DNA of 62,069 bases from Candidatus Velthaea sp. GTDB lineage: Bacteria > Vulcanimicrobiota > Vulcanimicrobiia > Vulcanimicrobiales > Vulcanimicrobiaceae. This document shows positions 27,213 through 48,179 of this stretch, in pieces (position 1 is the stretch's first letter; each line of letters starts with the position of its first letter). The notes under the pieces are model-generated. The model was not told the origin of the DNA. It ran no database searches and worked only from the letters and a program-made list of their open reading frames with translations. The stretch lies in the NCBI GenBank assembly GCA_050012475.1, contig JBEKHC010000016.1:1-62069 (forward strand), written 5' to 3'. A program made the translations under genes and the position numbers.

Positions 27213-27258
27213 ATCGGCCTTTTCCACGATGGCCCCGTGCGCGCCGCGGTGTTACGCT
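27213..27258 (+). promoter_or_regulatory. Regulon motif copy upstream of the PRC-barrel gene
   Basis: ATCGGCCTTTT-CCACGATG-N17-GTGT-TACGCT (weaker upstream half). Confidence 0.55.
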
Positions 27259-27422
27259 TGCGACAGGCGTTGATTTCAAAGACCCGGCGGTCTGGTCTCT
27301 GGACAGGTCAAACTCGGCTAGGAACTGCGCTCCCGATTCGCGGAAGCAGCGCCCTCACTTCCGTCGGCGTGCGGGTACCGATTTTGCCGCTATGGCGCCC
27401 GCGCAGAGCAGAGGAGCAAACC

Positions 27423-27905
27423 GTGTCTTCACATCAGACCACGACGAGCACTGAACTTCAAAAACTCGCTGACACCGGCCTCACCCTCGACGACGATCGC
27501 CAAGACATCCGCGGCCGCCGGCTGGTCGACGGCGCAGGCGAAGCGATCGGGCACGTCAGCAATCTCTTCATCGACGCCGGCCAACGTAAGGTGCGGATGC
27601 TCGAAGTTCGCGCCGGCGGTTTCCTGGGATTGGGCGACAAACACTTTCTCCTTCCCGTGGAAGCGATCACGAGCGTCGACGCGGATGTCATTCACGTCAG
27701 CGAAACACGCGAGCGCATCATTCACTCACCGGTCTACGATCCGCAGCTCGTCCCCGAACCGGCCCACGAGTACTGGGAGCCATTCTACGGATACTACGGC
27801 CTGCCGCCGTTTTGGGGCAACGATTACCTCTACCCCGGTTTTCCGCTGTCGCTCGAACAACGGCCGACGGTCAACGAGCACTCGAGTCACGCACAAGACC
27901 TGTAG
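27423..27905 (+). CDS. PRC-barrel domain protein
   Basis: DIRGRRLVDGAGEAIGHVSNLFID...GGFLGLG...LLPVEAI, YGYYG.PPFW. GAGGAG RBS then GTG. Confidence 0.88.
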   Translation: MSSHQTTTSTELQKLADTGLTLDDDRQDIRGRRLVDGAGEAIGHVSNLFIDAGQRKVRMLEVRAGGFLGLGDKHFLLPVEAITSVDADVIHVSETRERIIHSPVYDPQLVPEPAHEYWEPFYGYYGLPPFWGNDYLYPGFPLSLEQRPTVNEHSSHAQDL

Positions 27906-27939
27906 GCGACGGCTTTAGCACGAAGGGGTATTGCGCGCC

Positions 27940-29355
27940 ATGATGCTCGTCAGTAAGACGTACGATGATCTTGCGGTCGGAGATGAAGCCTCGATAACGC
28001 GGGTCGTTACACCGGACGACCTGTACGTCTTCGCGCACGTGAGCGGCGATTTGAACCCGCTGAACCTGCCCACCAGCGGGGAAAGCGGGCCGGCCGATGC
28101 GGGCTCGGCGGCACCCGCAATGTGGATCGGCTCGCTCTTTTCCGCCGTGCTCGGGAACGTGCTCCCCGGACCCGGGACGACCTATGCTGCACAGACGCTG
28201 CGATTTTATGCTCGGGCACTTGTCGGCGACACGCTCACGGTGACCGTTCGCGTTCAAGAGAAACGGCCGCCGCATACGGTCGTGCTGCAAACACACATCA
28301 AACGCGAGGACGAGACGATCGCCGACGGCGTCGCCGAAGTCCGCGCGCCGGCGATCGGATTGGCGCTAACGGAAAGCGTTCTTCCGGAGCTGACCGTCGC
28401 CCGGCACGCCAACGTCGAGCGGCTTTTGGCGGCTTGCCGCGGCCTGCCGCGGCTGGTGACCGCGGTCGTCGCACCGGAGGAAGCGCTGGCTTTGGAAGGA
28501 GCGCTCGAAGCCGCGCACCGCGGCTTGATCGAGCCGGTGTTGATCGGCAGTATCGAAAAAATCCGCGCGGTGGCCGCGGCGTGCCGCTTCTCGCTTGACG
28601 GATGCGCGCTCGAGGACGTCCCGGACCATGACGCGGCAGCTGCGCGCGCCGTGGAGCTGGTGCACGCGGGTCGTGTTGCGGCCGTCATGAAGGGCTTTCT
28701 GCACACCGACGAGTTGTTGCGCCAGATCGTCAAGTCGCAAGGGGGGCTGCGGACGTCCCGGCGGATCAGTCACGTGTTCGTGATGGACGCACCGGCGCTG
28801 GCCGGACTTCTGCTCGTGACCGACGCGGTCGTCAACATCGCCCCGACGCTCGATGACAAGGTCGACATCGTGCAAAACGCCATCGACCTCGCGCTTGCGC
28901 TTGGGATCGTCGAGCCGAAGGTGGGGATCCTGTCGGCGGTCGAGACGGTGAGCTCGAAAATCCCGTCGACGCTCGACGCCGCGATCTTGTCCAAGATGGC
29001 CGACCGCGGGCAAATCCGCGGCGGGGTCGTCGACGGCCCGCTCGCGATGGACAATGCCGTCAGCGTGTCATCGGCGCGGGCGAAAGGCGTCGTCTCAGCC
29101 GTCGCCGGGCGCGCCGACGTGCTCGTCGTGCCGAACGTGGAAGCCGGAAACATTTTGGCCAAAGAGCTGATCTATGCCGCGCAGGCGGAAGGCGCGGGCA
29201 TCGTTCTGGGCGCGAAGGTGCCTATCATGCTCACGAGCCGGGCCGACGATGCGCGATCGCGTCTGTTCTCGTGCATCGTGGCCGTGCTGTACAACGCCTG
29301 GTGCGTCAGCGGCCGCAGCAGGATGCCGGCTCCCGCGCGTCCGGGCACGGCATGA
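27940..29355 (+). CDS. Bifunctional MaoC-like enoyl-CoA hydratase / phosphate acyltransferase
   Basis: N-terminal FAHVSGDLNPL and LPGPGT. C-terminal MKGFLHTD, VDGPLAMDNA and LTSRAD. Confidence 0.92.
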   Translation: MMLVSKTYDDLAVGDEASITRVVTPDDLYVFAHVSGDLNPLNLPTSGESGPADAGSAAPAMWIGSLFSAVLGNVLPGPGTTYAAQTLRFYARALVGDTLTVTVRVQEKRPPHTVVLQTHIKREDETIADGVAEVRAPAIGLALTESVLPELTVARHANVERLLAACRGLPRLVTAVVAPEEALALEGALEAAHRGLIEPVLIGSIEKIRAVAAACRFSLDGCALEDVPDHDAAAARAVELVHAGRVAAVMKGFLHTDELLRQIVKSQGGLRTSRRISHVFVMDAPALAGLLLVTDAVVNIAPTLDDKVDIVQNAIDLALALGIVEPKVGILSAVETVSSKIPSTLDAAILSKMADRGQIRGGVVDGPLAMDNAVSVSSARAKGVVSAVAGRADVLVVPNVEAGNILAKELIYAAQAEGAGIVLGAKVPIMLTSRADDARSRLFSCIVAVLYNAWCVSGRSRMPAPARPGTA

Positions 29356-29387
29356 CGCGCGCCTTACTATAGCGGCGCTCGGCTCCG

Positions 29388-29433
29388 TTCCATGTATTTC
29401 ACGGTACCGCCGTGCAGCGCTCTGCGCTAGACT
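29388..29433 (+). promoter_or_regulatory. Regulon motif copy upstream of the BON-macAB operon
   Basis: TTCCATGTATT-TCACGGTA-N17-GCGC-TAGACT. Confidence 0.75.
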
Positions 29434-29637: not shown

Positions 29638-30297
29638 ATGCTCAAGCCTGACCTCAATATCGATCTGCACCGACACGTCATCGAAGAGCTGGCATTCGAT
29701 CCCAGCATCGACGAACGCGCGATTGCGGTAGCCGTCAGCGGCGATGTGGTAACGCTGAGCGGCTTTGTAAACAGCTACTCGCAGAAGCTCGCCGCCGAGA
29801 AGGCGGTGAAACGGGTCCGCGGCGTACGCGGAATCGCCGAGGAGCTGACGATCGATCTTCCGGTGTTTCACGTTCGCAACGACGCCGATCTGGTGTCATC
29901 CGCGGTTGCCGCGCTGCGCTGGCACGTCGACGTTCCCAACGATGCGGTGCTCGTCAGCGCCGATGCCGGCCAGCTGACCTTGACCGGCAACGTCGAGTGG
30001 CATCATCAACGCGCAGCGGCCGAGGCTGCCGTCGCGTCGCTCGAGGGTGTGCGTGGTGTGACGAACGACATCGCGCTGCGGCCGCACGATGCCGTCGGCG
30101 ACATCGCGATCGCGATCCGCAGCGCGTTTGCACGCAGTTCTCAAGTCGATGCCGAGCGGGTCAAAATCGAAATGTCCGAAGGCACCGTGACGCTGCGCGG
30201 ATCGGTCCATTCGTGGGCCGAGCGGGAAGACGCCGAGAACGCAGCCTTCTCGATTCCCGGCGTTAGCAATGTTCGGAATCTTACGATCATTTCCTGA
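29638..30297 (+). CDS. Triple BON-domain (OsmY-like) protein
   Basis: Three VTLSG/LTLTG/VTLRG...GVRGV.N repeats. AAGGA RBS. Confidence 0.92.
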   Translation: MLKPDLNIDLHRHVIEELAFDPSIDERAIAVAVSGDVVTLSGFVNSYSQKLAAEKAVKRVRGVRGIAEELTIDLPVFHVRNDADLVSSAVAALRWHVDVPNDAVLVSADAGQLTLTGNVEWHHQRAAAEAAVASLEGVRGVTNDIALRPHDAVGDIAIAIRSAFARSSQVDAERVKIEMSEGTVTLRGSVHSWAEREDAENAAFSIPGVSNVRNLTIIS

Positions 30298-30300
30298 CCG

Positions 30301-31860
30301 ATGAAAGCGACGATCCAACCCCAGAACGGAGCGTCGACCAGCGCTCAACCCATTTCCGCCGTGCCGGTCCGACGGCGGCGCAGGTCGTCGCTGGTCTGGG
30401 GCGTACTCGCGCTGGTCGTCGTCGCCATCGCGGCCGTGCTCATCGTGCGACTGCGCGCCGGTAAGGCGGTCACGTACGTGACCGCGCCGGTCGTTCGCAC
30501 GACGTTGGTTCAGACCGTCACCGCCGAAGGAACCGTCAACCCGCAAAACCTCATTCTCGTCGGCACGCAGGTCTCAGGGACGATCTCCGAACTCGACGTC
30601 GACTACAATTCGGCGGTCCGCGTCGGCCAGGTCATGGCGAAGATCGATCCGACGACATTCCGCGATGCGCTCGATTCCGCCGCCGCGTCCCGCACACAAT
30701 ATGGTAACCAATATGCAGCCGGCGTCGCCGCCGCACAGAGCGCTGCGCAGACCGTGGCGACCGACCAGCAGAATGCCGTCGCTGCTCGCGCCGCACTCGC
30801 CTCCTCGGAAGCGCAGGTCGGGAAAGCGAAAACCGCCGCCGCACTCGCCGCGCTCACCGTGCAACGCGATGCGGCGCTGCTGACGCACGGGTACGTCGCG
30901 CAGAACCAATACGATACCGACGCCTCGACGCGCGTCGCTGCCCAGGCGGCGCTCACCGCCGCGCAATTGGCGGTCGATCAAGCGCGGGCGCAAGCAGCGG
31001 CCCAAGATGCGGTCGTCACCGCCGGGAAAGCACAAGCGCGCAGCGCGAGCGCGACGGCCCGCGCCGATCAAGCTCAGATTGGCGTGTACGGGGCGCAGGT
31101 GGCCATAGCGACCTACAATCTTCGCCAGAGCGTGATCGTCTCGCCGGTCCGCGGCACGGTCATCGCGCGCAACGTGTCGGTCGGGCAGACCGTGGCGGCG
31201 AGCTTCACGACGCCGACGCTGTTCACGATCGCCCAAGATCTCACGAAGATGGAGGTCGACATCGCCGCCGGCGAGCCGGACGTCGGCGGCGTTCACACAG
31301 GCGAAGCCGCCGACTTCACCGTCCTCGCTTTTCCGAACCGGACCTTTACGGGCACCGTGTACCAGGTGCGGCAAAATCCGACCACGCTCAACAACGTCGT
31401 TACCTACGATACGGTCGTCTACGTTCAAAATCGCGATGGCGCCCTGTTTCCGGGAATGACGGCAAACGCGAACATCCACGTAGCGAAAGTCGCGAACGCG
31501 CTCGTCGTGCCGCTCCAGGCGCTGGGGTGGGCCCCGCGTCTTGCTACGACTGCCGCAAGCGAGTCCGGCGCTGCGCCGGCGTCACCTTGGGGGACGACCA
31601 CGGCGTCGCTCAGCCGGACGGTCGTCGCCGGCCGCAACGGCCGGCTCTTCGTGCTGGAAAACAACGTGCCGCGCGCCGTCAGCGTTCGCATTTTGCTGGT
31701 CAGCGGGACGCAGGCGGCCGTCGCGCCGATTGCCGGTTTACTGGGCACGACCGACCGCATCGTGATCAGCGATTCGAGCCAGAACACCGCGACGAAGGCA
31801 ACGTCGACGATCACCGCGCTGGCACCAGCGGCGACCGCCGCTCGGCCGGCTACGCATTGA
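30301..31860 (+). CDS. MacA-like periplasmic adaptor (HlyD family)
   Basis: VGTQVSGTI..L.VDYNS, SPVRGTVIARNVSVGQTVAASF and LFPGMTAN. Confidence 0.9.
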   Translation: MKATIQPQNGASTSAQPISAVPVRRRRRSSLVWGVLALVVVAIAAVLIVRLRAGKAVTYVTAPVVRTTLVQTVTAEGTVNPQNLILVGTQVSGTISELDVDYNSAVRVGQVMAKIDPTTFRDALDSAAASRTQYGNQYAAGVAAAQSAAQTVATDQQNAVAARAALASSEAQVGKAKTAAALAALTVQRDAALLTHGYVAQNQYDTDASTRVAAQAALTAAQLAVDQARAQAAAQDAVVTAGKAQARSASATARADQAQIGVYGAQVAIATYNLRQSVIVSPVRGTVIARNVSVGQTVAASFTTPTLFTIAQDLTKMEVDIAAGEPDVGGVHTGEAADFTVLAFPNRTFTGTVYQVRQNPTTLNNVVTYDTVVYVQNRDGALFPGMTANANIHVAKVANALVVPLQALGWAPRLATTAASESGAAPASPWGTTTASLSRTVVAGRNGRLFVLENNVPRAVSVRILLVSGTQAAVAPIAGLLGTTDRIVISDSSQNTATKATSTITALAPAATAARPATH

Positions 31861-32576
31861 TGGCGGAGTCTCTCCCGGTCGTGAGGCTCGAGAAGCTGCG
31901 CAAAGTCTACCAGATGGGCGGCCAGGAAGTGATTGCGCTCGACAGCGTCGACCTGACGCTCGAACGCGGCGAGTTCGTCGCGATCATGGGCGCGTCGGGT
32001 TCGGGGAAATCGACGCTCCTGCACATGGTCGGCCTGCTGGACCGGCCGACATCGGGTCGCTATTTGCTCGAGAACCAAGACGTGGCCCAACTCGGCGCCG
32101 ACGATCTTGCCGACCTGCGGTCACGGCGGCTGGGGTTCGTCTTTCAAGCCTACAATCTGCTGGCGCGCACGACGGCGGTTGAGAACGTCGAACTGCCGAT
32201 GATGTATGCCGGCATACCGGACGCCGAACGTCGCCGCCGGGCACTCGCCGCGCTCACGATCGTCGGCGTGGCAAACATGGCCGAGCATATTTCCAACCAA
32301 ATGTCCGGCGGCCAGCAGCAGCGCGTCGCAATCGCCCGCGCGCTCGTGAACGATCCCAGTCTGATCCTAGCCGACGAACCGACCGGCGCCCTCGACTCGA
32401 AATCATCGACCGAAATAACCCGGCTGTTCCAAAAGCTCAACGAGGAACGCGGAATCACGATCCTGATGGTCACGCACGAGCCGGACGTCGGACGCGCGGC
32501 GAAACGGATTATCACCTTCCGCGACGGCCGCGCCATCTCCGACGAACCGGTGATCCGGCAGGCGCTGGGCGTATGA
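31860..32576 (+). CDS. MacB/LolD-type ABC ATP-binding protein
   Basis: GASGSGKST, MSGGQQQRV, ADEPTGALD and MVTHE. Confidence 0.95.
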   Translation: MAESLPVVRLEKLRKVYQMGGQEVIALDSVDLTLERGEFVAIMGASGSGKSTLLHMVGLLDRPTSGRYLLENQDVAQLGADDLADLRSRRLGFVFQAYNLLARTTAVENVELPMMYAGIPDAERRRRALAALTIVGVANMAEHISNQMSGGQQQRVAIARALVNDPSLILADEPTGALDSKSSTEITRLFQKLNEERGITILMVTHEPDVGRAAKRIITFRDGRAISDEPVIRQALGV

Positions 32577-33787
32577 CGCTGCGCACCCTGCTCAAGATCG
32601 CTTGGGAAGCCATCGTTCGCAATGGAATGCGCTCGTTGCTCACCATGCTCGGCGTGGTCATCGGCGTCGCGGCGGTGATGATCACGGTGTCGATCGGCGC
32701 CGGTGCGCGTGAATCGGTCGCGGCGCAAATTACGGGCCTGGGCAGCAACCTGCTCATCGTCATTCCCGGAAACGTCACCCTCAACGGCGTGCGCAGCGGC
32801 ACCGGCGCCGCTTCGACGCTCACGCCCGATGACGGCTTAGCAATCGCGAAACTGCCCCATGTCGCCGCCGTCTCGCCGACGGTCGGTGTGAAGACCCAAG
32901 TCGTCGCCGGAAAAAACAATTGGTCTACCAGCGTCGCCGGCGTCGCGTCGACATTCACGTTCATCCGCGGCTGGGATCTGTCGTCCGGCTCGTTTTTCAC
33001 CGATGCCGACACGTCCGCGTCGGCCAAAGTCTGTGTGCTCGGCCAGACCGTCGTCGCCAATCTCTTTCCCGACGGTTCGCCGCTGGGAAAGACGATTCTC
33101 ATCCGCAACGTCCCGTTCACCGTGATCGGCGTCTTGGCCGCGCGCGGCCAGAGCGCGTCCGGTCAGGATCAAGACGATACGATCGCGATCCCGTACACGT
33201 CGGCGATGCAGCGTCTCACCGGCACCACCTTCGTGAGCGTGCTGCTCGTCTCGGCCGACGATGCGGCCTCGATCGCTCCGGTTCAGGCGCAGATCAGCGC
33301 GCTGCTCGAGCAGCGTCACCGAATCGTCGGCGGCGAAGCGGACGACTTCAACGTGCGCAGCCTCCAGGACATCGCTAACGCTGCCTCGGCGACCGCATCG
33401 GTCATGGAATACCTGCTGGCCGGCGTCGCAGCCGTTTCGCTCCTCGTCGGCGGCATCGGCATCATGAACATCATGCTCGTTTCCGTCACCGAACGAACGC
33501 GCGAGATCGGGTTGCGCATGGCCGTGGGTGCGCGCAGCGGTGCGATTCTCGAACAGTTTTTGGTCGAAGCCGTGACGCTCTCCACCGGCGGCGGTCTGAT
33601 CGGCGTTGCGTTCGGGGCAGCGATTACGTTTGTCGTCGCGCTCATCGCACACTGGCCGATGGTTCTTTCACCCGGCGTGGCGATCGCATCGGTCGGCTTC
33701 TCCGCGGTTGTCGGCGTGTTCTTCGGCTACTATCCGGCGCTCAAAGCATCGCGCCTCAATCCGATCGACGCGCTTCAATTCGAGTGA
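32573..33787 (+). CDS. MacB-type ABC permease
   Basis: RSLLTMLGVVIGV, GGIGIMNIMLVSVTERTREIG and GYYPA.KAS.LNPIDAL. Confidence 0.95.
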   Translation: MTLRTLLKIAWEAIVRNGMRSLLTMLGVVIGVAAVMITVSIGAGARESVAAQITGLGSNLLIVIPGNVTLNGVRSGTGAASTLTPDDGLAIAKLPHVAAVSPTVGVKTQVVAGKNNWSTSVAGVASTFTFIRGWDLSSGSFFTDADTSASAKVCVLGQTVVANLFPDGSPLGKTILIRNVPFTVIGVLAARGQSASGQDQDDTIAIPYTSAMQRLTGTTFVSVLLVSADDAASIAPVQAQISALLEQRHRIVGGEADDFNVRSLQDIANAASATASVMEYLLAGVAAVSLLVGGIGIMNIMLVSVTERTREIGLRMAVGARSGAILEQFLVEAVTLSTGGGLIGVAFGAAITFVVALIAHWPMVLSPGVAIASVGFSAVVGVFFGYYPALKASRLNPIDALQFE

Positions 33788-33828: not shown

Positions 33829-33875
33829 GTCCCTGAATTTCACGATACTACCATGCGCCCGGTCTGCGCTATACT
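33829..33875 (+). promoter_or_regulatory. Regulon motif copy upstream of the 61-aa protein
   Basis: GTCCCTGAATT-TCACGATA-N18-GCGC-TATACT. Confidence 0.72.
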
Positions 33876-33934: not shown

Positions 33935-34120
33935 ATGTTGCGAGCTGGAGATCGAGTCTACATCAACGGCACCTTCGAGCAAGGCATCGTCAAAGAAGTC
34001 CACACGCATGAGGTCGTCGTGCGCGTTGCGGTCCCGGGGGGAAGCGAGGAAAGACGGTACTCGCACGAGAGCCTCCGGTTTATGCCGACGATGCACGAAG
34101 GGTTGAGCATGGCGCACTAG
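33935..34120 (+). CDS. 61-aa SH3/KOW-like small protein of unknown function
   Basis: MLRAGDRVYING...GIVKEV...VVVRV. GGGGA RBS, own promoter motif, and a decayed paralogue at 36883. Confidence 0.8.
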   Translation: MLRAGDRVYINGTFEQGIVKEVHTHEVVVRVAVPGGSEERRYSHESLRFMPTMHEGLSMAH

Positions 34121-34310: not shown

Positions 34311-34335
34311 ATCGAGGACCACTGACGCCCAGACC

Positions 34336-34468: not shown

Positions 34469-36259
34469 TCACCGCGGCGTGTGTTCCTTCGGGGCCGCTT
34501 GTGCCGGGGCGGCATGCGAGGCCGGGGCGGCATGTGAGGACGGCGCAGCGTGTGATGGCGGCGCAGGCGCACGAACAGCCGGAGCGGCATGAACGGGGCG
34601 CGGAGGAGCTGCGTAGACGGCCGGCACGTGAACCGGCGCAACTTCGTGGACGGCCGGTGCTTGATAAGCGGGCGCCGCTTCGTGAATGACGGGGGCGTGA
34701 TACGCGGGGGCTTGTCGGACGGTTGGAGCGGGAACCGACGCCGCCCGGTGGACAACGGCCGCTTGAGGCACCGGAGCTTCGTGCACCGCGGGCGCATGAT
34801 ATGCCGGCGCAGCAGGATGAACAACGGGCGCGTGATACGCAGTTGGTTGGTGAGCCGCCGGCGCGGTCACAGGAGCCTGGGCTACCGGTACTTTGTGGAT
34901 GGCCGGCCCATGAGACGCCGTTGAAGCCTCCTTGCCCGCGGGTGCATGAATTGCCGGGCGGCCGACCTGAGCCTGAGCCGCCGCGGGGCGGGCAGCCTGA
35001 ACCGGCACCGGGCGGGCAGCCTGAGCGTGAGCCGCCGCCGGGCCGGCAGCCTGAGCGTGTGCCGTCGCGGGGCGCGCAGCCTGAGCGTGTGCCGCCGCGG
35101 GGCGAGGAGCCGCGACGTGAACCGGAGCGACGTTGGCCAGCGGATTCACGCGATCGGCGGCCTTGACTGCAACGAACCCCGACGGGCGATTATTTTGACT
35201 CAAGGGACGCGCCACGGCGAGAACCGGCGGTTTGTTGTTATTGACGCGAGCGAGAAGCCGACGGTCCTGTTCAGCCAATTGCACGTGCTGCTGTTGTACC
35301 GGTGTCATGCCCAAGTGGCGTTGCTTCGTAACCGATTGCTGTTGTTGTGTCGGACTGGTGCGCAATCCGTATCTTCCGCCATTGTAGCCAATGCGAGCCG
35401 TCGAATTGTTGGCGTACACGTTGCGGTCAACGTATACGTTGCGAATGTTCGTCGTGTTGACGCGCGAGACATACGTGTTATAGCGGAACTCGTTATTCGA
35501 CCATCGGCCGCCGTCATAACCGTTGCCGTAGTAGCCGCCGCCATAGTTAACGCCGCCGTAGAACCCAACGGCCAAAGCCCAGTAGCCGGGATTCCAGTGG
35601 AAGCCTACGTCGTTTCCCTGCCAATAGCCCGGGGTCCATAGGTAGCCGGGCTGCGGCGCCGGGACCCACGTGCCCGGCACCCAATAGTAACCGTACGAAC
35701 CCCAAGCCCAATAACCCGGCTGCCAGATGTAATTGGGTTCGGGCACATACGGTTGATCGTAGACCGGAATTGGGGGAGGAGCCGTGTCCACGTAACTTGC
35801 GGTTCCCGGCGCGTAGTAGTCCGCCGAGCCTCCTGCGGTATCGATCGCTGCGATGCTATCGGCATCATCCCAGCTGACGCTGTCCCCGAGCGCTTCAGAA
35901 ACGAAGCGAAGCGGGATATACGTGCTCTCACCGACGATGAATGGCGCCACGTCGATAATTTGCGTCTGCCCATTGACCGTAGCTTGGGTTGAACCGATCT
36001 GCAACGAAATTTCGCGACCGTTGCCCGTCGCGTTGATCGTGCCGTTTGAATAGACGACGCTCGCGCCGAGTTGCTCGAAGACCCCGCGCAGCGGAACGAA
36101 CACGCGTCCGGCCTGGACGATCGGCGGAGGCGAGATATCGACCGCGCTTCCGTTGACCGTTACTCCGACGTCGGCATTCGCCGCAAGCGTCGTGAGCGCG
36201 AACATCCCAACCGCAGCGATCGAAGCGGTCACGTACTCGGAACGAACTTTGGGAATCAC
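34469..36259 (-). CDS. Secreted protein: copper-amine-oxidase N-terminal (stalk) domain, YXWGXW repeats and an Ala/Pro/His-rich tail
   Basis: GRVFVPLRGVFEQLGA, TYIPLRFVSEALG; YIWQPGYWAW, YLWTPGYW; AHAQAARP and PAYHAP repeats. Confidence 0.88.
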   Translation of the reverse strand: MIPKVRSEYVTASIAAVGMFALTTLAANADVGVTVNGSAVDISPPPIVQAGRVFVPLRGVFEQLGASVVYSNGTINATGNGREISLQIGSTQATVNGQTQIIDVAPFIVGESTYIPLRFVSEALGDSVSWDDADSIAAIDTAGGSADYYAPGTASYVDTAPPPIPVYDQPYVPEPNYIWQPGYWAWGSYGYYWVPGTWVPAPQPGYLWTPGYWQGNDVGFHWNPGYWALAVGFYGGVNYGGGYYGNGYDGGRWSNNEFRYNTYVSRVNTTNIRNVYVDRNVYANNSTARIGYNGGRYGLRTSPTQQQQSVTKQRHLGMTPVQQQHVQLAEQDRRLLARVNNNKPPVLAVARPLSQNNRPSGFVAVKAADRVNPLANVAPVHVAAPRPAAAHAQAARPATAHAQAAGPAAAHAQAARPVPVQAARPAAAQAQVGRPAIHAPAGKEASTASHGPAIHKVPVAQAPVTAPAAHQPTAYHAPVVHPAAPAYHAPAVHEAPVPQAAVVHRAASVPAPTVRQAPAYHAPVIHEAAPAYQAPAVHEVAPVHVPAVYAAPPRPVHAAPAVRAPAPPSHAAPSSHAAPASHAAPAQAAPKEHTPR

Positions 36260-36346
36260 GTTAGACCTCAGACTTCATTTCACACCAGGAACGCTTGCAG
36301 CGAGTCAGACGTACTCCATGGGCATTAAGACGACATTACAATAACC

Positions 36347-36398
36347 CGTGGACACATCGAGAACACGTGGACACATCGAGAACACGTGGACACATCGA
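36347..36398. repeat. 19-bp tandem repeat CGTGGACACATCGAGAACA x2.7
   Basis: Copies at 36347, 36366 and 36385 (partial). Confidence 0.95.
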
Positions 36399-36724
36399 CC
36401 TGACTTCATCATGCCATCCTCATATTCAACGCATCCGTTCAGCCGCCGGCACCCTGACGGCCGCTCACCCATTCGCTGCCGCGACCTTCGAGCCGTTCAC
36501 GCCGGCCTCGTCATGCCGCACGCGCAACGAAGCAAGATGATTGTCGTCTATGGAGTCGTTCAGGCGCTCGCTACAATTGGCCTCCGCGACTATCCGGTTC
36601 ATCTCCGCGCTCTCGTTGCAAGAATCCGTATCCGATTCGGCTCCGTCGCCAGCCGAATTCTCGACGCTCGTCGACGCAGGCGCGCCGGGACGATCACCTC
36701 GACGACGGAGTGGTCGGCTCGCCT

Positions 36725-36770
36725 ATCGTATTGCATTCCGGCATCTGCCGCAATCGTGAAATACGGGGAA
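36725..36770 (-). promoter_or_regulatory. Regulon motif copy, leftward
   Basis: TTCCCCGTATT-TCACGATT-N17-GCAA-TACGAT. Confidence 0.7.
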
Positions 36771-36882: not shown

Positions 36883-37091
36883 ATGTTGCGACCCGGAGAC
36901 CGTTTCAATATCTACGGTGCCGGCGAGGAAAGCCGGCGTCAAAGAATTCCATACGAACGACATCGTCGTCTACGTTCAGATCCCGCAAAATCGCCTCCGG
37001 ATCGTACGAGCGAACTTACGCGCACGAAAGTGTCCGCCGGAGCACAGGGATACTCGACGCCGCAGCCGCGCGCCTCGCGAACTATTCTTGA
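36883..37091 (+). pseudogene. Doubly frameshifted paralogue of the 33935-34120 small protein
   Basis: Three frames give MLRPGDRFNIYGAGEE / AGVKEFHTNDIVVYVQIP / SGSYERTYAHESVRR. GGAGGAG RBS. Confidence 0.8.
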
Positions 37092-37271: not shown

Positions 37272-38690
37272 ATGCTGCAACCCCCCAGTCAAGTCGCTCA
37301 GGCCCGCCCGGGCGTCTTTCTGGATGAGCAGCGGTCTCGTTCGATACGCGTCCTGGTCGTCGGCTCATTTCCGCCGCGAGAGTGCGGGATCGCTACGTTT
37401 ACAAAGGACGTCGTGGACCATCTCGCCGCCCGAGACGACGTGCGCTGTGAGGTAATCGCTATCGACGAAGCCGGCGGCGAAGCGCGTACGTACGGGGTGC
37501 CCGTCGTGGCACGGATCAAACGCGACGATCGCTCATCGTACGCGTCGGCGGCGGGATTCATCAACCAGCATCCTGCCAGCATCGTGCTCGTGCAGCACGA
37601 GTACGGTCTGTTCGCCGGCGAAGACGGTGCGGCGTTTCTCGATCTGCTCGCTGCGGTCCGCAAGCCAGTCGTGGTGACGTTTCACACGGTCTTGCCTGCG
37701 CCGAATGCGAACCACCGCGCGGTGACGCAAGCCATTTGTGCGCGGGCGGAAGCCGTAGTCGTTTTGTCCCATATGGGCAAGACGATTTTGCAGCAAGCCT
37801 ACGGCGTGAGCGAAAAAACGATCTACATGATCCCGCACGGCGTTCCCGATGTGCCGTTTACCTCAACGGAGCCTGCGAAGCGGAAACTTGGCTTTGCCGG
37901 CCGGAACATCGTATCGACATTTGGGCTACTGTCGCGCGGCAAAGGGCTCGAAGATGCAATTGAAGCGATGCAAACCATCGCTTCGGACCATCCCGAGGCG
38001 CTCTACTTGATCCTCGGTCAAACGCATCCGATCGTCCGTCAGCAGGAGGGCGAGTCGTATCGTGAAGCGCTCGCCGCTCAAGTGATCAAACTCGGCTTGC
38101 GAGGCAATGTCGCCTTCGTCGGCCGCTATCTCTCCTTCGACGACTTGATCTTCTATCTGTCGGCAACCGATATTTATCTCACCCCGTACCTCAATGCCGA
38201 CCAGATCGTCAGCGGAACGCTTGCCTATGCTCTGGGCTGCGGCAAAGCGATCGTTTCGACACCCTATCTCTACGCGCGCGAAGTACTCGCGCGAGGGCGC
38301 GGTTCATTGTGTGATTTCCACGATCCCACATCGATTGCGGCGAACGTCACGGCTCTGCTCGACCATCCGCATCGGCGACACGCGATGGAGCGGCGCGCGT
38401 ATAAATTTGGTCATGAGATGCGGTGGTCGAATGTAGCCGCGTCGTATGCGCAAATCTTCAGCGACGCAACAGGCTGCAGCGCACCCGATTCTTTGCCACG
38501 CCATGTCGTCCATCATGACGTCTTGCGCATGGCTAGGAGTTCCGGAAGCAACGTGCGCAAGAGCGGTGAAACGTACCCGGCGGACAGCGGAACACGCATA
38601 CCGCTCACAAACGGAGTCACACGAGTACTCGATCCGGTCACGCAGGGCGGCCCATCACGTGTTTGCGATCGCTTTGGAGATCAGCTGTGA
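37272..38690 (+). CDS. GT4 glycosyltransferase
   Basis: PPRECGIATFT, QHEYGLF, IPHGVP, TFGLLSRGKGLE and SGTLAYALG.GKAIVSTPY. Confidence 0.92.
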   Translation: MLQPPSQVAQARPGVFLDEQRSRSIRVLVVGSFPPRECGIATFTKDVVDHLAARDDVRCEVIAIDEAGGEARTYGVPVVARIKRDDRSSYASAAGFINQHPASIVLVQHEYGLFAGEDGAAFLDLLAAVRKPVVVTFHTVLPAPNANHRAVTQAICARAEAVVVLSHMGKTILQQAYGVSEKTIYMIPHGVPDVPFTSTEPAKRKLGFAGRNIVSTFGLLSRGKGLEDAIEAMQTIASDHPEALYLILGQTHPIVRQQEGESYREALAAQVIKLGLRGNVAFVGRYLSFDDLIFYLSATDIYLTPYLNADQIVSGTLAYALGCGKAIVSTPYLYAREVLARGRGSLCDFHDPTSIAANVTALLDHPHRRHAMERRAYKFGHEMRWSNVAASYAQIFSDATGCSAPDSLPRHVVHHDVLRMARSSGSNVRKSGETYPADSGTRIPLTNGVTRVLDPVTQGGPSRVCDRFGDQL

Positions 38691-39328: not shown

Positions 39329-39577
39329 TTAGAGATTCCTGCGAATGTCCTGTCTCACGGAATCGACCTTTGCTAAGGCTTCTTCACGGACTTCGGCGGC
39401 GACCGACTTCGCCTGTTCTCCCAACGATAGCGAGTCGCCCGAACGCTTTTCCGCTTCGGCTCGTGCTGCGGCATGATGCTGCGCTTCCGAAGCCGCATCC
39501 CGAGCGTTGTGCTTTGCGGCCTCGACGGCATCGCTTACCGGCTTCGTGACCGTATTGAATGTTTCTTTGAAACCCAT
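39329..39577 (-). CDS. 82-aa hydrophilic helical (LEA/CsbD-like) protein
   Basis: Ala/Glu/Lys-rich helical sequence, AAGGGAG RBS, and a motif promoter upstream. Confidence 0.78.
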   Translation of the reverse strand: MGFKETFNTVTKPVSDAVEAAKHNARDAASEAQHHAAARAEAEKRSGDSLSLGEQAKSVAAEVREEALAKVDSVRQDIRRNL

Positions 39578-39741: not shown

Positions 39742-39787
39742 ACTGTATCGCGTTCGGAGCGAAGAATCTATCGTGAAACTCACGGAA
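39742..39787 (-). promoter_or_regulatory. Regulon motif copy upstream of the LEA-like gene
   Basis: TTCCGTGAGTT-TCACGATA-N17-GCGA-TACAGT. Confidence 0.75.
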
Positions 39788-41874: not shown

Positions 41875-42381
41875 TTACTTGGTCTCTTTCTCGTCGGGTT
41901 CGTGCCGATTGGCGAGATTCCGAATCTCTTCGATGTTGCTGCGCACGCGATTCGAGACGATCTCGAGGATCTCCGACTGCGACTTGCCGACCGTGTCGGC
42001 AATCTCTTTCATGCTCGCCAGAGCGCTCGACAACGCTTCGCTGGCGAGAGCTTGCTGTTTACGAATGACTTCTGCGGGCTTCGCCGCTTCCTCCGGCAAT
42101 TTGCGCAACGCCTCGCCGACTTCCGTGAGCACCGTTTTTAGCAACTCGGCCTGCTTCTCGACGATCGTCTGGGCACCGACGAATGCTGCGGATGTCCCCC
42201 GCGTTACCGAGTCGATGTCCAGCTTGCGTGATTCGAGGAAGCCGTCAAGGTCAAAGCCGGGCAGCTTGAACCGTTCGAGCATGCCTCGAATGTCCAGCGA
42301 AGCATCGTTCGCGTCTTCGTGCGGCGCATCTTTGGCGTCGGTCGCCTTCGGGTCGGGCGTCAGGGTGGTTTGTTGGCTCAT
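41875..42381 (-). CDS. phaP: Phasin (PHA granule protein)
   Basis: FKLPGFDLDGFLESRK.DI...GAQTI..KQAELL...SQSEILEIVSNRV. Confidence 0.8.
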   Translation of the reverse strand: MSQQTTLTPDPKATDAKDAPHEDANDASLDIRGMLERFKLPGFDLDGFLESRKLDIDSVTRGTSAAFVGAQTIVEKQAELLKTVLTEVGEALRKLPEEAAKPAEVIRKQQALASEALSSALASMKEIADTVGKSQSEILEIVSNRVRSNIEEIRNLANRHEPDEKETK

Positions 42382-43013
42382 CATCGTTCCGTTCTGTAGT
42401 ACATGAGTGAAGGTACGTTTGAAATCGCCGGATTGGGAAGCCCGCTCATTGTCGACGCCGCGGCCGAACGTCGTGCCCTTACTTCGCCGTCGCGGACAAT
42501 AGGCTCAATATACCGTCGGTCCTCGACGATGTCACTCCCTGAGAGTCACGATAACGCTGCACGTTCTAAGGCGCTCGTCAAACGGGATTCGGCCTCCTCG
42601 GCCCGGCCCGGACGCCGGTCTGGGTGATTTCTTGGTGGTCGCCGCAGCGATCCCACTGAATTGCCAGCCCCCGGTTGTCCCGACCATTGCCGATGCAGTC
42701 CAACGTGCAACCGCACTTCCACGTCGATCGCTCGATCTGCGACGTGCCGTGGGAAAACATGAGTGATCTGGTTTGATAGGGGCCGAGAACGCGATGAATC
42801 TCGGCCGCTTTTTTACCTCGTGCGATTTTCGTCTCCCATCATCGCGAAATCGGTATATAAGAACGGTTTGCGGCGCCGGATTCTCGAATTGAGCTTCATG
42901 GCGCGAATAGCACATAATAATTAGACGGGAGCGGATAGAATCTGGGCAATCGTGGAAAACGTGGATTGAACCCGAGCGAATGATGCGGTAAAATCGATGC
43001 GGAGGATACTGCC

Positions 43014-43697
43014 TTGTCACGTCCACACGAAGATCGCGAACGACACACCCTCGTCGACCATCGGCCCGGCGGGTCGCCGGCGGCATTCACCGTTGGAAGC
43101 TGGCTGGCCATCGGTATCGCGCGCGTCAAGGCAGAGCGCGACGATGCATGCGTCGCCGCCTACGAAACGCTCATCGAAAAAGCGAGCACGTCGAACGTTC
43201 ACGCCGGCCCGGCCGTTGTGTTCGCATCGGACAACGGCCGGCGGGTGGTGGCGATGGTTGGGGTGCGCGGCCATGACGCCTTTCGTCACCTCACGGCGGC
43301 CTGGGACGACCACCATCGTAACGAGCAGCATCGCGTGATCGCGGAGTCGGTGTCGTTCGCTCTCTACGAAGTCGCCGCGGGCATCGGAGAGCCGGACATC
43401 GATCCGGCGTCGCACGACGTGTACGTCTACGAGCGCTTGGAGCGGGGCGTCCCGCGCGCATCCGAGCTTTTCTCCTCGCTCGACGCCGGGACGGGTTTTC
43501 GAGGCGCGACCGTCTTCCAGGGCGACGACGCAACCGCGACCGTCATCCTCTCGCGCTTCGCCCACCTCGCGGCTTACGACGCCTTTCGCACCGGCCGAGC
43601 TGCCGTGAACGCCCTTGGCTCACGCGGCGAACCGGGAGACGCGTCCTTCGCCGTGCACCCGCGCAAGACGATCGCGCTCCCTGCGGCTCGCGCCTAG
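43014..43697 (+). CDS. Hypothetical protein, possibly tandem ABM-like barrel domains
   Basis: GGAGGA RBS then TTG. Two similar halves: VFASDNGRRVVAMV..RGHDAFR and GFRGATVFQGDDATATVILSRF..LAAYDAFR. Confidence 0.7.
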   Translation: MSRPHEDRERHTLVDHRPGGSPAAFTVGSWLAIGIARVKAERDDACVAAYETLIEKASTSNVHAGPAVVFASDNGRRVVAMVGVRGHDAFRHLTAAWDDHHRNEQHRVIAESVSFALYEVAAGIGEPDIDPASHDVYVYERLERGVPRASELFSSLDAGTGFRGATVFQGDDATATVILSRFAHLAAYDAFRTGRAAVNALGSRGEPGDASFAVHPRKTIALPAARA

Positions 43698-43709
43698 TTC
43701 GGTTTCGAG

Positions 43710-44561: not shown

Positions 44562-44610
44562 CTTCTTACGCCGCCTGCATAGCCGGTCGTTGCAGACTCG
44601 CACGATGACA

Positions 44611-45723
44611 TTAGACGATCACAGCATTTACCGGGCGACGCAAGGACCGCGGCATCTCCAGACCACGACCAAGGCGCACTACCAGATCGGGGCGACGATG
44701 CCCGAGACCGAGCGAACGCGCAAAATCGGTTCGGAGCGACGAGACTTCCACGGGTTGGTTCACCATTGCCGTGCGGATACCCAGCGCCGTTGCCTGCAGA
44801 ACGAAACGTTCATAGCAGCGCCCCGTCTGAACCCAATGCTGATGGTCGCTGGCATCGGACACAAACACGGCGATTCCCGCGGAGCTTCTAATGAACTTTG
44901 CATACTTGTCGTTTTCGCTGTTCGGCGTAAAAGACAACGTCAACGCGAGATTGCCGAGCCAGCGCGGAACTTGTGGATTGCCTGAAGCGTGCGAGCTTAG
45001 CCCATCGCCCGTCGCGATGGCGTCCCCGTCGTTAAAACGGATCCATTTGCGCAGTTCGGCCATGAAGGCAGGGTCATTCATCTGCCTGGTGTTGCCCTGG
45101 ACTACGTACTCGAGGACGCGTTCCATCTGGCTTCGACCGGTAAGCAACAGGATACGGACTCCTTGCCCCTGTCCAGCAACTTCGAGCGCTCGTAATTCGG
45201 TTTGCTGTATGGGTGTGCCGTCGTATGCGCCGCGCGTGCATTGACGCATGGGAATCGCACCGAACAGCGGCGAGATGACCGCTTTCGCCCGCTGGAATGC
45301 GACTCGTACCCCGGCGCCGGTGGCGGGATCGAAGCGGACGTCGCTGCGGAGGCCGTGCGCAAGCCCGGCCTGAACCAGGTTCTCCGTTGCACAGCCGAGG
45401 CTAACGAAGAGGTGATGGTCGTCTGGGTCCACAGCCGGGCAGCGCCGAGCGAAGTCGGGGAGAATCGAAATGAGATTCTTTTCGAGTTTGAATCTCCAGC
45501 ACTGGGTGTTGTGGCTCGACGGCGCAAGCGTTGCATACCGGACGAGTTCACGCTGCAGAGCGTCACTCCCCGAGATGCGGCTGTCAAAGGGCCGCCACGT
45601 TCCTTTCACGGCCTGGGTGTACGCATTGTTGGATGATGAGCAGGCGGCAAAGGGCGCAGCGCTCGCAATGAGCGTCGCCGCTGCCAAAAACCCCCGCCGG
45701 GTCGGCTGTCTTTCGCTCTCCAT
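44611..45723 (-). CDS. Acg-family FMN-binding nitroreductase-like protein with a Tat signal
   Basis: TRRGFL; ATLAPSSHNTQCW, VDPDDHHLFVSLGCATENL, NQPVEV and SLRRPV. Confidence 0.88.
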   Translation of the reverse strand: MESERQPTRRGFLAAATLIASAAPFAACSSSNNAYTQAVKGTWRPFDSRISGSDALQRELVRYATLAPSSHNTQCWRFKLEKNLISILPDFARRCPAVDPDDHHLFVSLGCATENLVQAGLAHGLRSDVRFDPATGAGVRVAFQRAKAVISPLFGAIPMRQCTRGAYDGTPIQQTELRALEVAGQGQGVRILLLTGRSQMERVLEYVVQGNTRQMNDPAFMAELRKWIRFNDGDAIATGDGLSSHASGNPQVPRWLGNLALTLSFTPNSENDKYAKFIRSSAGIAVFVSDASDHQHWVQTGRCYERFVLQATALGIRTAMVNQPVEVSSLRTDFARSLGLGHRRPDLVVRLGRGLEMPRSLRRPVNAVIV

Positions 45724-45742
45724 GGCATCTACGCCGCAAAGT

Positions 45743-46637
45743 TCAAATCGCGTGGTCATTTCTCGCCCCCGCCGCTTTGTCGATCGCGCTGTAAACGAGT
45801 CGCAAATGCGGCGTAACGTCATTCTCAATGAGGGAACGCACGTCGGCCACGAGCGCGGCCATCTCCCGCGGTGCGTGACGCGTGTGGAGCGCAAAGTAAC
45901 GTTCCCCGCGAAACGATCGCAAGAGTCGGCGCCAGTACCCGATCGCGAACGCAAGCGGAACCCAGAGGAAGATCGCGCGCAGCGGCAGCGGAGCAGGCCG
46001 CAATGATAAACGTGCGCACGAGCGCCGAATCAGATGCCAAGCGAATCGGGTCGCCATCGACCTCATACAATGCGCCGGCAATCGCTGTCACGAAAATCGC
46101 GTGTCGGCGCAGCCACGAATCCATGTCTGGTACCAGTTCGACGCGAAAGCCGGCGCTTCGGATGATAGCGGCGACATCGGGCGCTCTCGCCTCAATCGCC
46201 GTCGCTTGTTCGCTGACTTCGACGTAACGATCCACGCCATCTTCGATCGCGCCGGCCGCTCCGGGAAAGCCTAGAACGACGCGCTGACGGCTAAGTGCCT
46301 CGTAGAGCGAATCGGATCCGTTTGCATGATTCACCATAACGACGAAGCGCGCGACTCTTGTCGCCACTACGAGGTCTGGAAGCGCGTCGTCCAGCTGCTC
46401 CCGCCGAACACAAATGAGACAGAGGTCGGCGACCGTATCTCGTGTTAGCCGTTCGATCACCCGCAACTGAACGACGTCGGTGCGGTTTGTCAGCGCGTTC
46501 GAGATGGCAGCTCCGCGGTCACTTAGCTCAGCCCCACGACCACCTCGCGCGATCAACGTTACGTCATGGCCTGCGCGAGCGAGCCGGACGCCGTAGAGAG
46601 TTCCCTGAACGCCGGACCCTAGGACCACGATCTTCAT
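45743..46637 (-). pseudogene. Ketopantoate reductase-like gene with a frameshift near 46000
   Basis: MKIVVLGSGVQG...DMDSWLRRHA...VRTFII continues in another frame as PAPLPLRAIFLWVP..FA..YWRR...HTRHAPREM. Confidence 0.8.
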
Positions 46638-46736
46638 TTTCCGCCATTGCGAGTCGTCGAGGCGTCAGTCCATATCATTGTCGCCGGCGATCGCCGCCGT
46701 CTCGGACTTACGATATCCGCCCTTGAGAGGCAGCGC

Positions 46737-46782
46737 TACCCCCCATTTCACTATGGTGGAGGGCGCTCGCGCTACGTATACT
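46737..46782 (+). promoter_or_regulatory. Regulon motif copy upstream of the LarA-like gene
   Basis: TACCCCCCATT-TCACTATG-N17-TACG-TATACT. Confidence 0.55.
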
Positions 46783-46861
46783 GTCTGCCAGCGCGCGTCG
46801 CGTTTGGCTCGTCAACTCGTTTAAGCGCCACGGATCTCGCCGTTCAGCTGGAGGTTTCGCG

Positions 46862-48124
46862 ATGGACTACATCGAGGCAGCCGTGGTCCTCGACACGCAG
46901 GTCGCCCCAGCGATCGCGAATCCCGAGCAGGCGGTCCGAGACGCGCTCGCAAGCGTGCTGCCGGGCCGGATCGCGCGCGGCGCGCGGGTAGCGATCACCG
47001 CCGGCAGTCGCGGCATCGCCAACGGCACCCCGCTTTTGCGCGGTTTGGCGACCGCCGTCCGCGCTGCGGGAGCGGAACCGTTTTTCATTCCGGCGATGGG
47101 CTCCCACGGGGGCGGCACCGGCGATGGCCAACGCGCGATGCTCGTTTCCCTCGGCGTCACGCAAGAAACCGTCGGTGCGCCAATCGTCAGCGAGATGGAC
47201 GTGATCGAAGTCGGCACCACCGCGAGCGGGGTCCGTGTTTACTGCGACGCGCAGGCGGCACGCGCGGACGCGATCGTCGTCGCGAACCGGGTAAAACCGC
47301 ATACCCATTTTTCGGGCACCATCGAGAGCGGAATGCTCAAGATGATGGCGATCGGTCTGGGCAAAGCCGTCGGCGCCGCAGCATACCATGCCGCCTTCGA
47401 ACGGATCGGATACGAGAAAGTCATCCGTGAAGTTGCCGAGGTGATGTTCGCTGGGACGCCGATCGTCGCGGGGGTCGGCTTCGTCGACGATAATCGCGGC
47501 GGCACTCACGCCGTTGGAGCCTTTCCTGCGGACACCATCGTGGCGAACGAAGAGCGGCTACTCGTGCAGGCGCGCGCGCTGCTCTCCGTGCTGCCGTTCG
47601 ATGAACTCGATCTGCTCGTTATCGACGAGATGGGCAAAGAACTCTCCGGAACCGGGATGGACACAAACGTCACCGCACGCGCCATCGACGGCCGAAGCCA
47701 AAAATCGCCGACGCCCATCGTCCGGCAGCTCTTCGTGCGCGATCTGACCGATCAGTCACACGGCAACGCCAACGGGGTCGGTATCGCCGATTTCTGTCTG
47801 CGCCGGTTAGCCGACAAAATCGACTGGCCATCGACCTATCTCAATGCATTGACCTCGGCATCACCGGCGGGGGCACGGCTACCCGTCGTATGTGCCAACG
47901 ATCGTGAAGCGGTTCGCTACGCGCTCGTGGCCGCCGGCGTCGAACGCCTGGCTGATGCGCGCGTCGCGCGCATCAAGAATACGCTGCACATCGATTCGAT
48001 GGTCGTTTCACAGGCCGCACTGGCGACGATGCGCAACGGCGGCCGGTACGCGGTGGGCGGCGACTCGGATGCGCTCGCGCTGCGCCACGGGGACGATTTT
48101 CCGGCCTTCCCGATCGCAACGTAG
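46862..48124 (+). CDS. LarA-superfamily (nickel-pincer-dependent isomerase-like) protein
   Basis: AITAGSRGI, PAMGSHGG.T, NRVKPHT, ESG.LKM.AIGLGK and GK..SG.GMD.NV. Confidence 0.82.
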   Translation: MDYIEAAVVLDTQVAPAIANPEQAVRDALASVLPGRIARGARVAITAGSRGIANGTPLLRGLATAVRAAGAEPFFIPAMGSHGGGTGDGQRAMLVSLGVTQETVGAPIVSEMDVIEVGTTASGVRVYCDAQAARADAIVVANRVKPHTHFSGTIESGMLKMMAIGLGKAVGAAAYHAAFERIGYEKVIREVAEVMFAGTPIVAGVGFVDDNRGGTHAVGAFPADTIVANEERLLVQARALLSVLPFDELDLLVIDEMGKELSGTGMDTNVTARAIDGRSQKSPTPIVRQLFVRDLTDQSHGNANGVGIADFCLRRLADKIDWPSTYLNALTSASPAGARLPVVCANDREAVRYALVAAGVERLADARVARIKNTLHIDSMVVSQAALATMRNGGRYAVGGDSDALALRHGDDFPAFPIAT

Positions 48125-48133
48125 TCTGCGCTC

Positions 48134-48179
48134 TTCCGAGTATTTCACGATACCGCTTCGAGTTCCGCTGCGATACAGT
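48134..48179 (+). promoter_or_regulatory. Regulon motif copy upstream of pntAB
   Basis: TTCCGAGTATT-TCACGATA-N17-GCGA-TACAGT. Confidence 0.78.

Follow-up and report, generated by a model that had tools for sequence, protein, structure and literature searches.

A candidate GAF-PAS-LuxR regulator for a fixed-geometry promoter box in a genomic island of Candidatus Velthaea sp.

Introduction

Contig JBEKHC010000016.1 of Candidatus Velthaea sp. (GCA_050012475.1), whose 62,069 nucleotides are called here the window, carries repeated copies of a short promoter element, a box followed at a fixed distance by a TAnnnT -10 hexamer. The first-pass annotation of positions 27213 to 48179 had listed ten copies and had taken them for an uncharacterised, activator-dependent regulon clustered in an island, with no obvious regulator in the window. 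This locus raises the question of which protein reads the box, and which conditions the regulon serves. The box is probably bound by a GAF-PAS-LuxR regulator whose gene lies in the same island; this protein is predicted to activate its targets from a site centred at -43.5 and is likely to repress its own gene.

Reality and extent of the motif

It is clear that the motif is real, conserved and extends far beyond the window. A direct check of the sequence recovered all ten copies first listed, with coordinates exact or off by at most 1 nt, and the spacing from the T of TCACG to TAnnnT is 29 nt, or 30 nt in the copy at 33829. The list itself was incomplete: the copies at 60436(-) (41.9 bits) and at 42966(-), the latter with a good box and a poor -10, had been overlooked, and the copy at 46737, before a LarA-like gene, is weak (12.6 bits in the refined matrix). 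In the first 25 kb of the window a matrix scan found no copy above 15 bits, in agreement with the earlier scan by eye.

The refined genome matrix, with bits scored genome-wide, gives the consensus (A/T)TC(C/G)-N4-W-TTYCACGAT-(ACC)-N15-(T)G(C/T)G-N-TAnnnT. Nine sites in the window reach at least 22 bits, and none does in any of 100 order-3 Markov resamplings, the kind of comparison with a random background that the first-pass annotation had proposed. Given that this matrix was trained partly on window sites, the fair test is a held-out one, in which a box-only matrix built from the eight copies first taken as intact was run over the whole genome at a cut-off of at least 18 bits. It recovered 21 further boxes, with TAnnnT at offset 40 in 14 of them, at offset 41 in one and missing in six, while every other offset from 22 to 71 has at most one TAnnnT. 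In a control with shifted spacings, 23 sites reached at least 24 bits at the true spacing versus 3-10 at the shifted ones; strong boxes pass alone, so low thresholds are uninformative in this comparison.

Over the genome (5.36 Mb in 204 contigs, the window being contig C16), 26 sites score at least 22 bits and the next score down is 19.4. They fall on contigs C3 (11), C16 (9), C78 (2), C160 (2), C32 (1) and C1 (1). All 26 lie outside the genes called by our own gene caller (coding fraction 0.84 in the genome and 0.73-0.77 in the island); 25 point at a same-strand gene in these calls, and a separate check of open reading frames (ORFs) places the 26th likewise. Site C1:172082 is doubtful, its ATG overlapping the -10.

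The last 40 nt of the window (62030..62069, +) overlap exactly with the first 40 nt of C3, where 11 more boxes occur together with a GAF-PAS-LuxR gene and divergent receiver and PP2C genes. A genome of the same genus (G001) is colinear (sigH, tRNA-Thr/Tyr/Gly, tRNA-Thr(GGT), tRNA-Trp, secE, nusG, rpoC), and the interval from tRNA-Gly to tRNA-Thr measures 3.4 kb there versus about 118 kb here. The join of C16 and C3 is inferred from the 40-nt overlap and this synteny. The insertion of about 118 kb, 2.2% of the genome by length, contains 20 of the 26 sites plus the candidate regulator, which lies about 64 kb past the end of the window on the adjoining contig. The proposal of an uncharacterised, activator-dependent regulon clustered in an island is supported, as is the remark that the window holds no obvious regulator. 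At 8780-9417 of the window, nusG is followed by rpoC with no rplK, rplA, rplJ, rplL or rpoB between, in an order identical in G001.

Geometry of the site

With TAnnnT placed at -12 to -7, the box extends from -52 to -35 and forms an 18-bp imperfect inverted repeat, (A)TC(G/C)-N10-CGAT, centred at -43.5, with a strong right arm, a weak left arm and a T-rich centre. Over 114 distinct sites the inverted pairs about -43.5 match at 0.54, 0.80, 0.96 and 0.25, and the inner pair about -43 at 0.75; xTC..GAT is present in 94 of 119 sites. The upstream part had earlier been read as a 10-bp direct repeat of the OmpR/PhoB type. Over the 114 sites, matches at this period are 0.70, 0.88 and then 0.01, and period 11 has one matching column (0.75). 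Only TC recurs, which is all that the direct-repeat reading accounts for, and the inverted symmetry about -43.5 fits instead.

The -35 position reads mostly TACCGN, starts with TTG in 7 of 119 sites and shows no -35 consensus. Spacer positions 22-34 are unconserved, and the G at -14 is near-invariant (48 of 53 targets and 28 of 29 regulator-side sites). Housekeeping promoters that depend on an activator have this layout. At L012:9938-10210 (G002:C22), three tandem units of box and -10 follow one another at intervals of about 112 nt, and no clear ORF lies downstream; these are possibly small RNA promoters.

The candidate regulator

Among the DNA-binding matches listed for the genome (GerE 30, Crp 18, OmpR 17), boxes adjoin one OmpR gene, on C32, and two paralogous GerE genes, on C3 (listed at 63995-64924) and C19. 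The C3 protein, P0001, is the candidate regulator. Its GerE domain (PF00196) scores 47.2 bits against a cut-off of 23.5, its helix-turn-helix (HTH) matches GerE 1fse as a four-helix GerE-type HTH (Z 10.9, root-mean-square deviation (rmsd) 2.3, 63 aligned), and among PDB sequences the NarL DNA-binding domain matches it best (E 1.8e-10). The structural model (predicted local distance difference test, pLDDT, 87) comprises a GAF-like domain (1-113), a PAS-like domain (138-227) and the LuxR HTH (234-297), with middling structural matches for GAF and PAS (Z 6-7). P0001 gave no Response_reg match, the NarL-like receiver being a separate divergent gene, and no Autoind_bind match (PF03472) at E<=0.1; its likeness to TraR, RhlR and QscR is at the level of the fold only.

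The N-terminal 235 residues served as the only query in a homologue search of 299 genomes of the class, a set that includes G216, G281 and G189 (unpublished). Matches were found in 130 genomes at E<=1e-8 and in 100 at E<=1e-30, and the exact box pattern occurs in 87 versus 5 for a reversed control. At E<=1e-30, 70 genomes have both, 17 the box only, 30 the regulator only and 182 neither. The regulator is present in every one of the 24 genomes with at least two boxes, while the pattern occurs in 2 of the 30 genomes with only distant homologues, akin to 15 of the 169 without any homologue; in genus g37, eight genomes have both and five have neither. Relatives carry from one up to 22 exact-pattern copies, and in many of them a single regulator copy adjoins a single box. 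In the 30 best-scoring regulator loci, chosen by similarity from more than 150 matches, a divergent box stands upstream of the gene in 28, and the LuxR protein is the sole DNA-binding gene that is always present.

A stricter pattern has five exact matches in a collection of 185,579 genomes, all of them in Vulcanimicrobiota. The regulator family comprises 126 clusters in a library of 1.84 billion and, in a sample of the phylum, occurs in 63 of 116 genomes from two families of one order and in 0 of 84 others. By these searches the regulator is confined to one order of Vulcanimicrobiota (Eremiobacterota). A distant subfamily (L083:885, L101:464 and L100:2387) has a variant box (..CATGATTATCACGATAG) and GAAAAT or GATAAT at the -10, a possible co-variation of site and protein.

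In the proposed mechanism, a dimer of the LuxR-type HTH would bind the ATC(G)/CGAT arms beside the -35 position and would recruit the housekeeping sigma-70 polymerase, as NarL does from -43.5 on yeaR. There, the alpha C-terminal domain lies in the minor groove between the NarL monomers, according to the accessible text of PMC10853779. Our best guess for the signal perceived by GAF/PAS is a cytoplasmic metabolite or pH cue.

A probable start codon inside the operator

The box at the regulator locus fronts a divergent receiver-only gene of 129-130 aa in 24 of the 29 loci of relatives, and a PP2C gene is found in 12 of 29. The receiver retains D52 (30/32) and K102 (29/32) together with four cysteines (C6 29/32, C74 28/32, C91 32/32, C121 31/32); no acidic pair after beta-1 is kept at >=85%, and the Pfam score is below cut-off. 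Its fold resembles the receivers of DesR and RcsB (TM 0.7-0.8). Receiver and PP2C likely constitute a split REC-PP2C relay. In the 29 loci no kinase recurs beside the regulator (one partial match), and no sigma gene recurs beside the box.

On the regulator strand the box reads ATC GTG AAA AAG...GAT. A box of at least 11 bits is present in 30 of the 33 loci inspected; it is in frame with the regulator in 29 and out of frame in one. The in-frame cases span 14 different open distances of 78-165 nt; one of these boxes is followed by an intervening stop, but a nearer in-frame box exists there. The in-box codon is GTG in 24 loci, CTG in five and GTT in one, the C3 copy of this genome. Purines occur at -14 to -11 before it, and in many loci the frame closes 12-24 nt upstream. 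On balance, these features favour a translation start inside the operator, which would give negative feedback. The same site would drive the divergent receiver-only gene, often with its overlapping PP2C gene, and occupancy of the box would limit the synthesis of the regulator because the other strand of the site holds its likely start codon.

A number of observations weigh against a LuxR-type regulator that reads the box and starts within it. Perfect ATCG..CGAT arms are found in only 22 of 119 sites, the left arm being degenerate, which could be compatible with a heteromer or another reader. Much of the co-occurrence signal reflects the physical linkage of the box to the regulator gene, and related genomes are not independent. 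Of the 17 genomes with a pattern match and no close regulator most are chance-like, with two strong cases (G238 and G216), and 30 genomes have the regulator with no exact pattern match. At the gene start, the box lies at 3849-3868 of L004, and the RNA contigs of the regulator, from four runs of one study, start 32-40 nt beyond it, at 3900/3908; by bin-depth arithmetic 3809-3899 is uncovered in two runs, which counts against a transcript starting upstream of the box. The C3 regulator copy has GTT instead of GTG. Only 15 of the 30 sites on the regulator side have a reverse-strand -10, compared with 12 of the 66 other sites, and the same letters can be explained by an extended -10 (TG in 28 of 29).

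RNA contigs of that study hold the island at near identity (32 of 124 pieces examined). On L004 they end at 2479, 2480 and 2486 for a predicted start at 2492, and at 3808, 3808 and 3792 for one at 3816, that is 6-13 nt and 8, 8 and 24 nt downstream of two predicted starts (three runs each). The contigs show neither the strand nor the real ends of the transcripts, so they offer no more than a weak hint on the start sites. The predicted starts C3:64951 and C3:69368 were not resolved in the RNA contigs.

Other readings of the box

The alternative that survives best, itself rather improbable, makes the reader of the box either a different, unlinked regulator or a heteromer in which the LuxR-type regulator pairs with a paralogue; the LuxR-receiver locus would then be partly a mere target. 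The asymmetry of the arms would fit this, as would the existence of two paralogues in this genome and of two to three in several others, and the strong boxes of G238 and G216, where no regulator was detected. A precedent exists in the GadE/RcsB heterodimer (accessible part of PMC2887963). Nonetheless, only the LuxR protein is always present among the DNA-binding genes of the 30 best loci, many genomes pair a single regulator copy with a single box beside it, and none of the 24 multi-box genomes lacks it.

It is very unlikely that the reader is the OmpR/PhoB-family response regulator C32:3670-4359, bound to 10-bp direct repeats. A 33.6-bit site points at this gene, and TTCC/TTCA recur at 10 bp in the strongest copies; however, the invariant ACGAT has no direct-repeat partner, and orthologues are present in box-less genomes. 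The gene was rejected as the regulator, its link to the box being private to this genome (1 of 25 orthologous loci has the box upstream); this check of box conservation covered the C32 gene among the OmpR genes listed.

Hardly more credible is a protein of the CRP/FNR family, which would take TCACG as a CRP-like half-site and make this a low-oxygen regulon of the FixK/Anr type. TCACG does resemble TCACA, and 13-14 Crp-HTH matches above cut-off exist in the genome. The targets also overlap the Burkholderia lxa locus in phasin, acetoacetyl-CoA reductase and BON (PMC12973609, as far as its text is accessible). Against this reading, the left arm that it needs (GTG/TGA six bases upstream) occurs in 0 of 119 sites, and the site would centre at -44.5, not -41.5. 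It was rejected on the absence of a left arm of the TGTGA-N6-TCACA or TTGAT-N4-ATCAA type and of any FNR box (TTGAY-N4-RTCAA) on the island contigs C3, C16, C78 and C160. The occurrence of TTTCACGAT in the accessible text of PMC8465061 lies inside a CRP-type palindrome of Thermus and is unrelated.

An alternative sigma factor that reads TTCACG as its -35 is highly improbable: the spacing is rigid and genes for extracytoplasmic function (ECF) sigma factors occur in and near the island, but sigma-70-family promoters have spacers of 16-19 nt, far shorter than this one, TAnnnT preceded by G at -14 belongs to the housekeeping type of -10, and no sigma gene recurs beside the box in the 29 loci. That the copies are regulator-free remnants of a duplicated promoter or small mobile repeat, as the flanking letters TTCCATGTATTTCACG common to several sites might suggest, is scarcely believable with spacer positions 22-34 unconserved, the box retained before unrelated genes in many genera, one copy decaying together with the loss of its gene, and no Rfam match in 25000-62069.

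Targets and physiological role

The probable regulon of the GAF-PAS-LuxR protein comprises, in this genome, genes for PRC-barrel, MaoC-phosphate acetyltransferase, BON-MacAB, GT4, PntAB and several small proteins. Two SPFH genes would also belong to it; one of them stands first in a row of genes on the same strand, followed by those for a GH130 phosphorylase, a proton-efflux P-type ATPase and what we take, from its sequence, to be a phosphoketolase-like protein. A second ATPase is accompanied by acetate kinase, and AspT by aspartate 4-decarboxylase (AsdA; C3:65082-68447). Further predicted targets are RidA with an amino-acid permease, threonine ammonia-lyase and alanine dehydrogenase; an alanine racemase fragment with serine ammonia-lyase; and a gene for an RNA polymerase omega subunit, possibly an additional one, together with those for acetoacetyl-CoA reductase and oleate hydratase. 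The omega gene (C3:69496-69678, L004:9496-9678) stands directly behind its box and its NF001579 match is below cut-off. The oleate hydratase gene (L004:10539-12100, C3:70539-72100) is split in the assembly, and RNA contigs of three runs carry one more base, which suggests an assembly error or strain variation.

In relatives, 96 distinct sites were considered, from loci picked by pattern or regulator matches. Their targets are the receiver (24), SPFH (15), one 155-aa unknown (4), GH130 (3) and PP2C (3), with H+-ATPase, acetate kinase, PPK2, a kinase-like gene and a WXXGXW protein twice each; 18 of the 96 have a target without match in this genome.

Proton export, decarboxylation coupled to antiport, and deamination are standard routes of acid resistance, and acetate kinase, PntAB and the enzymes of polyhydroxybutyrate (PHB) serve energy and redox balance. 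Judged by gene content, the output would be a survival toolkit for acid or low-energy conditions, made up of the proton-exporting ATPase, aspartate decarboxylase/antiporter, serine/threonine deaminases, alanine dehydrogenase and a phosphoketolase-acetate kinase-phosphate acetyltransferase route, together with acetoacetyl-CoA reductase, PntAB, SPFH and BON. The genome has 19 FNR-type palindromes (TTGAY-N4-RTCAA), one of them upstream of a Crp/Fnr gene, and none on the island contigs named above. Those at C118:4105 and C4:945 lie near Crp/Fnr genes, which suggests a separate FNR-like regulon. The lack of conserved Cys/His in GAF/PAS and the location of FNR-type boxes outside the island only argue against oxygen as the direct signal. 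The sole cultured member is a strict aerobe with growth at pH 4.5-8 (accessible part of PMC9758169). A role in acid or energy stress is quite plausible, and is favoured over hypoxia by the target content, the contrast with the FixK box of lxa, the lack of FNR boxes in the island and the aerobic relative. Hypoxia as such, which like dormancy could also be drawn from the gene content, would be an unlikely role, and general or desiccation stress is a similarly doubtful one.

Relation to known systems

The regulator resembles VqmA (PAS-LuxR) and the AHL-type (acyl-homoserine lactone) proteins LuxR, TraR and SdiA in the fusion of a sensor domain to a LuxR HTH, and VqmA is its top Foldseek match (7dwm, E 5.5e-6, rmsd 9.7 over the whole model). 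In the lux and tra systems the regulator gene is also divergent from the gene driven by the box, as here. Unlike these proteins, it has two tandem sensor domains and no Autoind_bind, with identity of <=19% in the Foldseek rows.

With NarL at E. coli yeaR, it would share the LuxR/GerE-type HTH and the use of one dimer site at -43.5 beside a weak -35, whereas NarL carries a receiver domain, works with a kinase and recognises a 7-2-7 site (TAACCAATAAATGGTA on yeaR), as given in the accessible text of PMC10853779. GAF-like and PAS-like domains and an asymmetric, different box set the present regulator apart from NarL. Activation would appear to resemble the NarL/VqmA type, with a regulator that belongs to neither subfamily. 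GadE of E. coli acid resistance is likewise a LuxR-type activator over an amino-acid decarboxylase/antiporter pair (here AspT/AsdA); its GAD box, however, is centred at -63 and bound by the RcsB/GadE heterodimer, and sequence and domain layout differ (PMC2887963, accessible part). Burkholderia lxa, linked to FixK, is also a clustered island with BON, phasin and acetoacetyl-CoA reductase, but in the accessible text of PMC12973609 it has a proposed TGAT-N6-ATCA (FixK) box and universal stress proteins. No universal stress protein match was found among the proteins scanned.

A search of the accessible literature found no description of the box or the regulator; subscription papers, supplements, RegPrecise and PRODORIC lay outside that search. 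The literature searched contains essentially no description of regulation in Vulcanimicrobiota (Eremiobacterota). The proposed mechanism of activation is itself textbook. The result is a predicted pair of regulator and site with exact geometry, testable in E. coli with no need for culture of the host, and the regulon links many unknown small proteins and an SPFH protein with enzymes of acid and energy stress. If true, an operator that holds the start codon of its regulator, with the frame preserved in different genera, would provide feedback in an unusually compact form. As a tentative wider picture, an order of bacteria from acid soil and peat may run an island for acid or energy crisis from its own GAF-PAS-LuxR family with a new box. 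In this compact arrangement, one operator would both switch on the divergent pair of Cys-rich receiver and PP2C genes and serve as the start codon of the regulator, and the regulon would grow from one to more than 20 sites by island accretion.

Copies within the window

The features are collected in Table 1. The copy at 36770(-) had been described as having no annotated neighbour, which did not hold: a plausible target lies 466 nt further on, and its homologues carry a box in two other genomes. For the copy at 39787(-), assigned earlier to a LEA-like gene, the gene behind the box was identified as the 82-aa ORF.

Table 1. Positions of the box copies in the window and of associated genes; positions with the prefix C3 or C19 refer to those contigs, all others to the window.
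Feature	Position	Strand	Remarks
Box + -10, 26.4 bits, perfect ATCG..CGAT arms	27213..27258	+	before PRC-barrel 27423-27905 and MaoC-phosphate acetyltransferase 27940-29355
Box + -10, 45.5 bits	29388..29433	+	before BON 29638-30297 and MacAB-type transporter genes 30301-33787
Box + -10, spacing +1, 43.2 bits	33829..33875	+	before 61-aa protein 33935-34120; paralogue on C3 also boxed
Box + -10, 40.3 bits	36725..36770	-	toward 34469-36259 (copper amine oxidase N-terminal domain + WXXGXW repeats)
Decayed copy without -10, box 18.7 bits	36779..36824	+	before paralogue of the 61-aa gene with two frameshifts, start at 36883
Box + -10, 32.1 bits	37128..37173	+	before GT4 glycosyltransferase 37272-38690
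Box + -10, 36.6 bits	39742..39787	-	before 82-aa Ala/Glu/Lys-rich ORF 39329-39577, no Pfam match
Decayed copy, 7.8 bits	42535..42580	+	before 43014-43697, whose homologue is boxed in locus L019
Additional copy, good box 26.0 bits, imperfect -10	42920..42966	-	536 nt before phasin gene 41875-42384; doubtful promoter
Weak copy, 12.6 bits, good TATACT	46737..46782	+	before nickel-pincer isomerase (LarA-like) 46862-48124; membership doubtful
Box + -10, 43.4 bits	48134..48179	+	before pntAB 48282-51223
Additional copy, 41.9 bits	60391..60436	-	before L-talarate/galactarate dehydratase 58912-60102
tRNA-Thr(GGT)	20144..20218	-	left boundary of the ~118-kb insertion
PP2C phosphatase gene	C3:62586-63329		overlaps receiver gene by 4 nt
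Divergent receiver gene	C3:63326-63718		
Candidate regulator P0001	C3:~63854-64924		GAF-PAS-LuxR; adjoins box
Regulator paralogue	C19:2374-3405		adjoins box, -10 absent

An Rfam scan of 25000-62069 gave no match. Acg-family nitroreductases belong to mycobacterial DosR regulons; the gene at 44611-45954 encodes a protein of this family, but no box was found at it or at the truncated ApbA-like gene 45825-46637, both within the island, and their poor coding scores suggest decay. The family of about 61 aa has members at 33935-34120 of the window, C3:1866-2054 and C75:4881-5048, with no Pfam match above cut-off; two intact genes of the family and a broken one have boxes. In the leader between the box at 36770 and the WXXGXW gene, a 17-nt unit, GTGGACACATCGAGAAC, is repeated in about 2.5 copies at 36345-36400.

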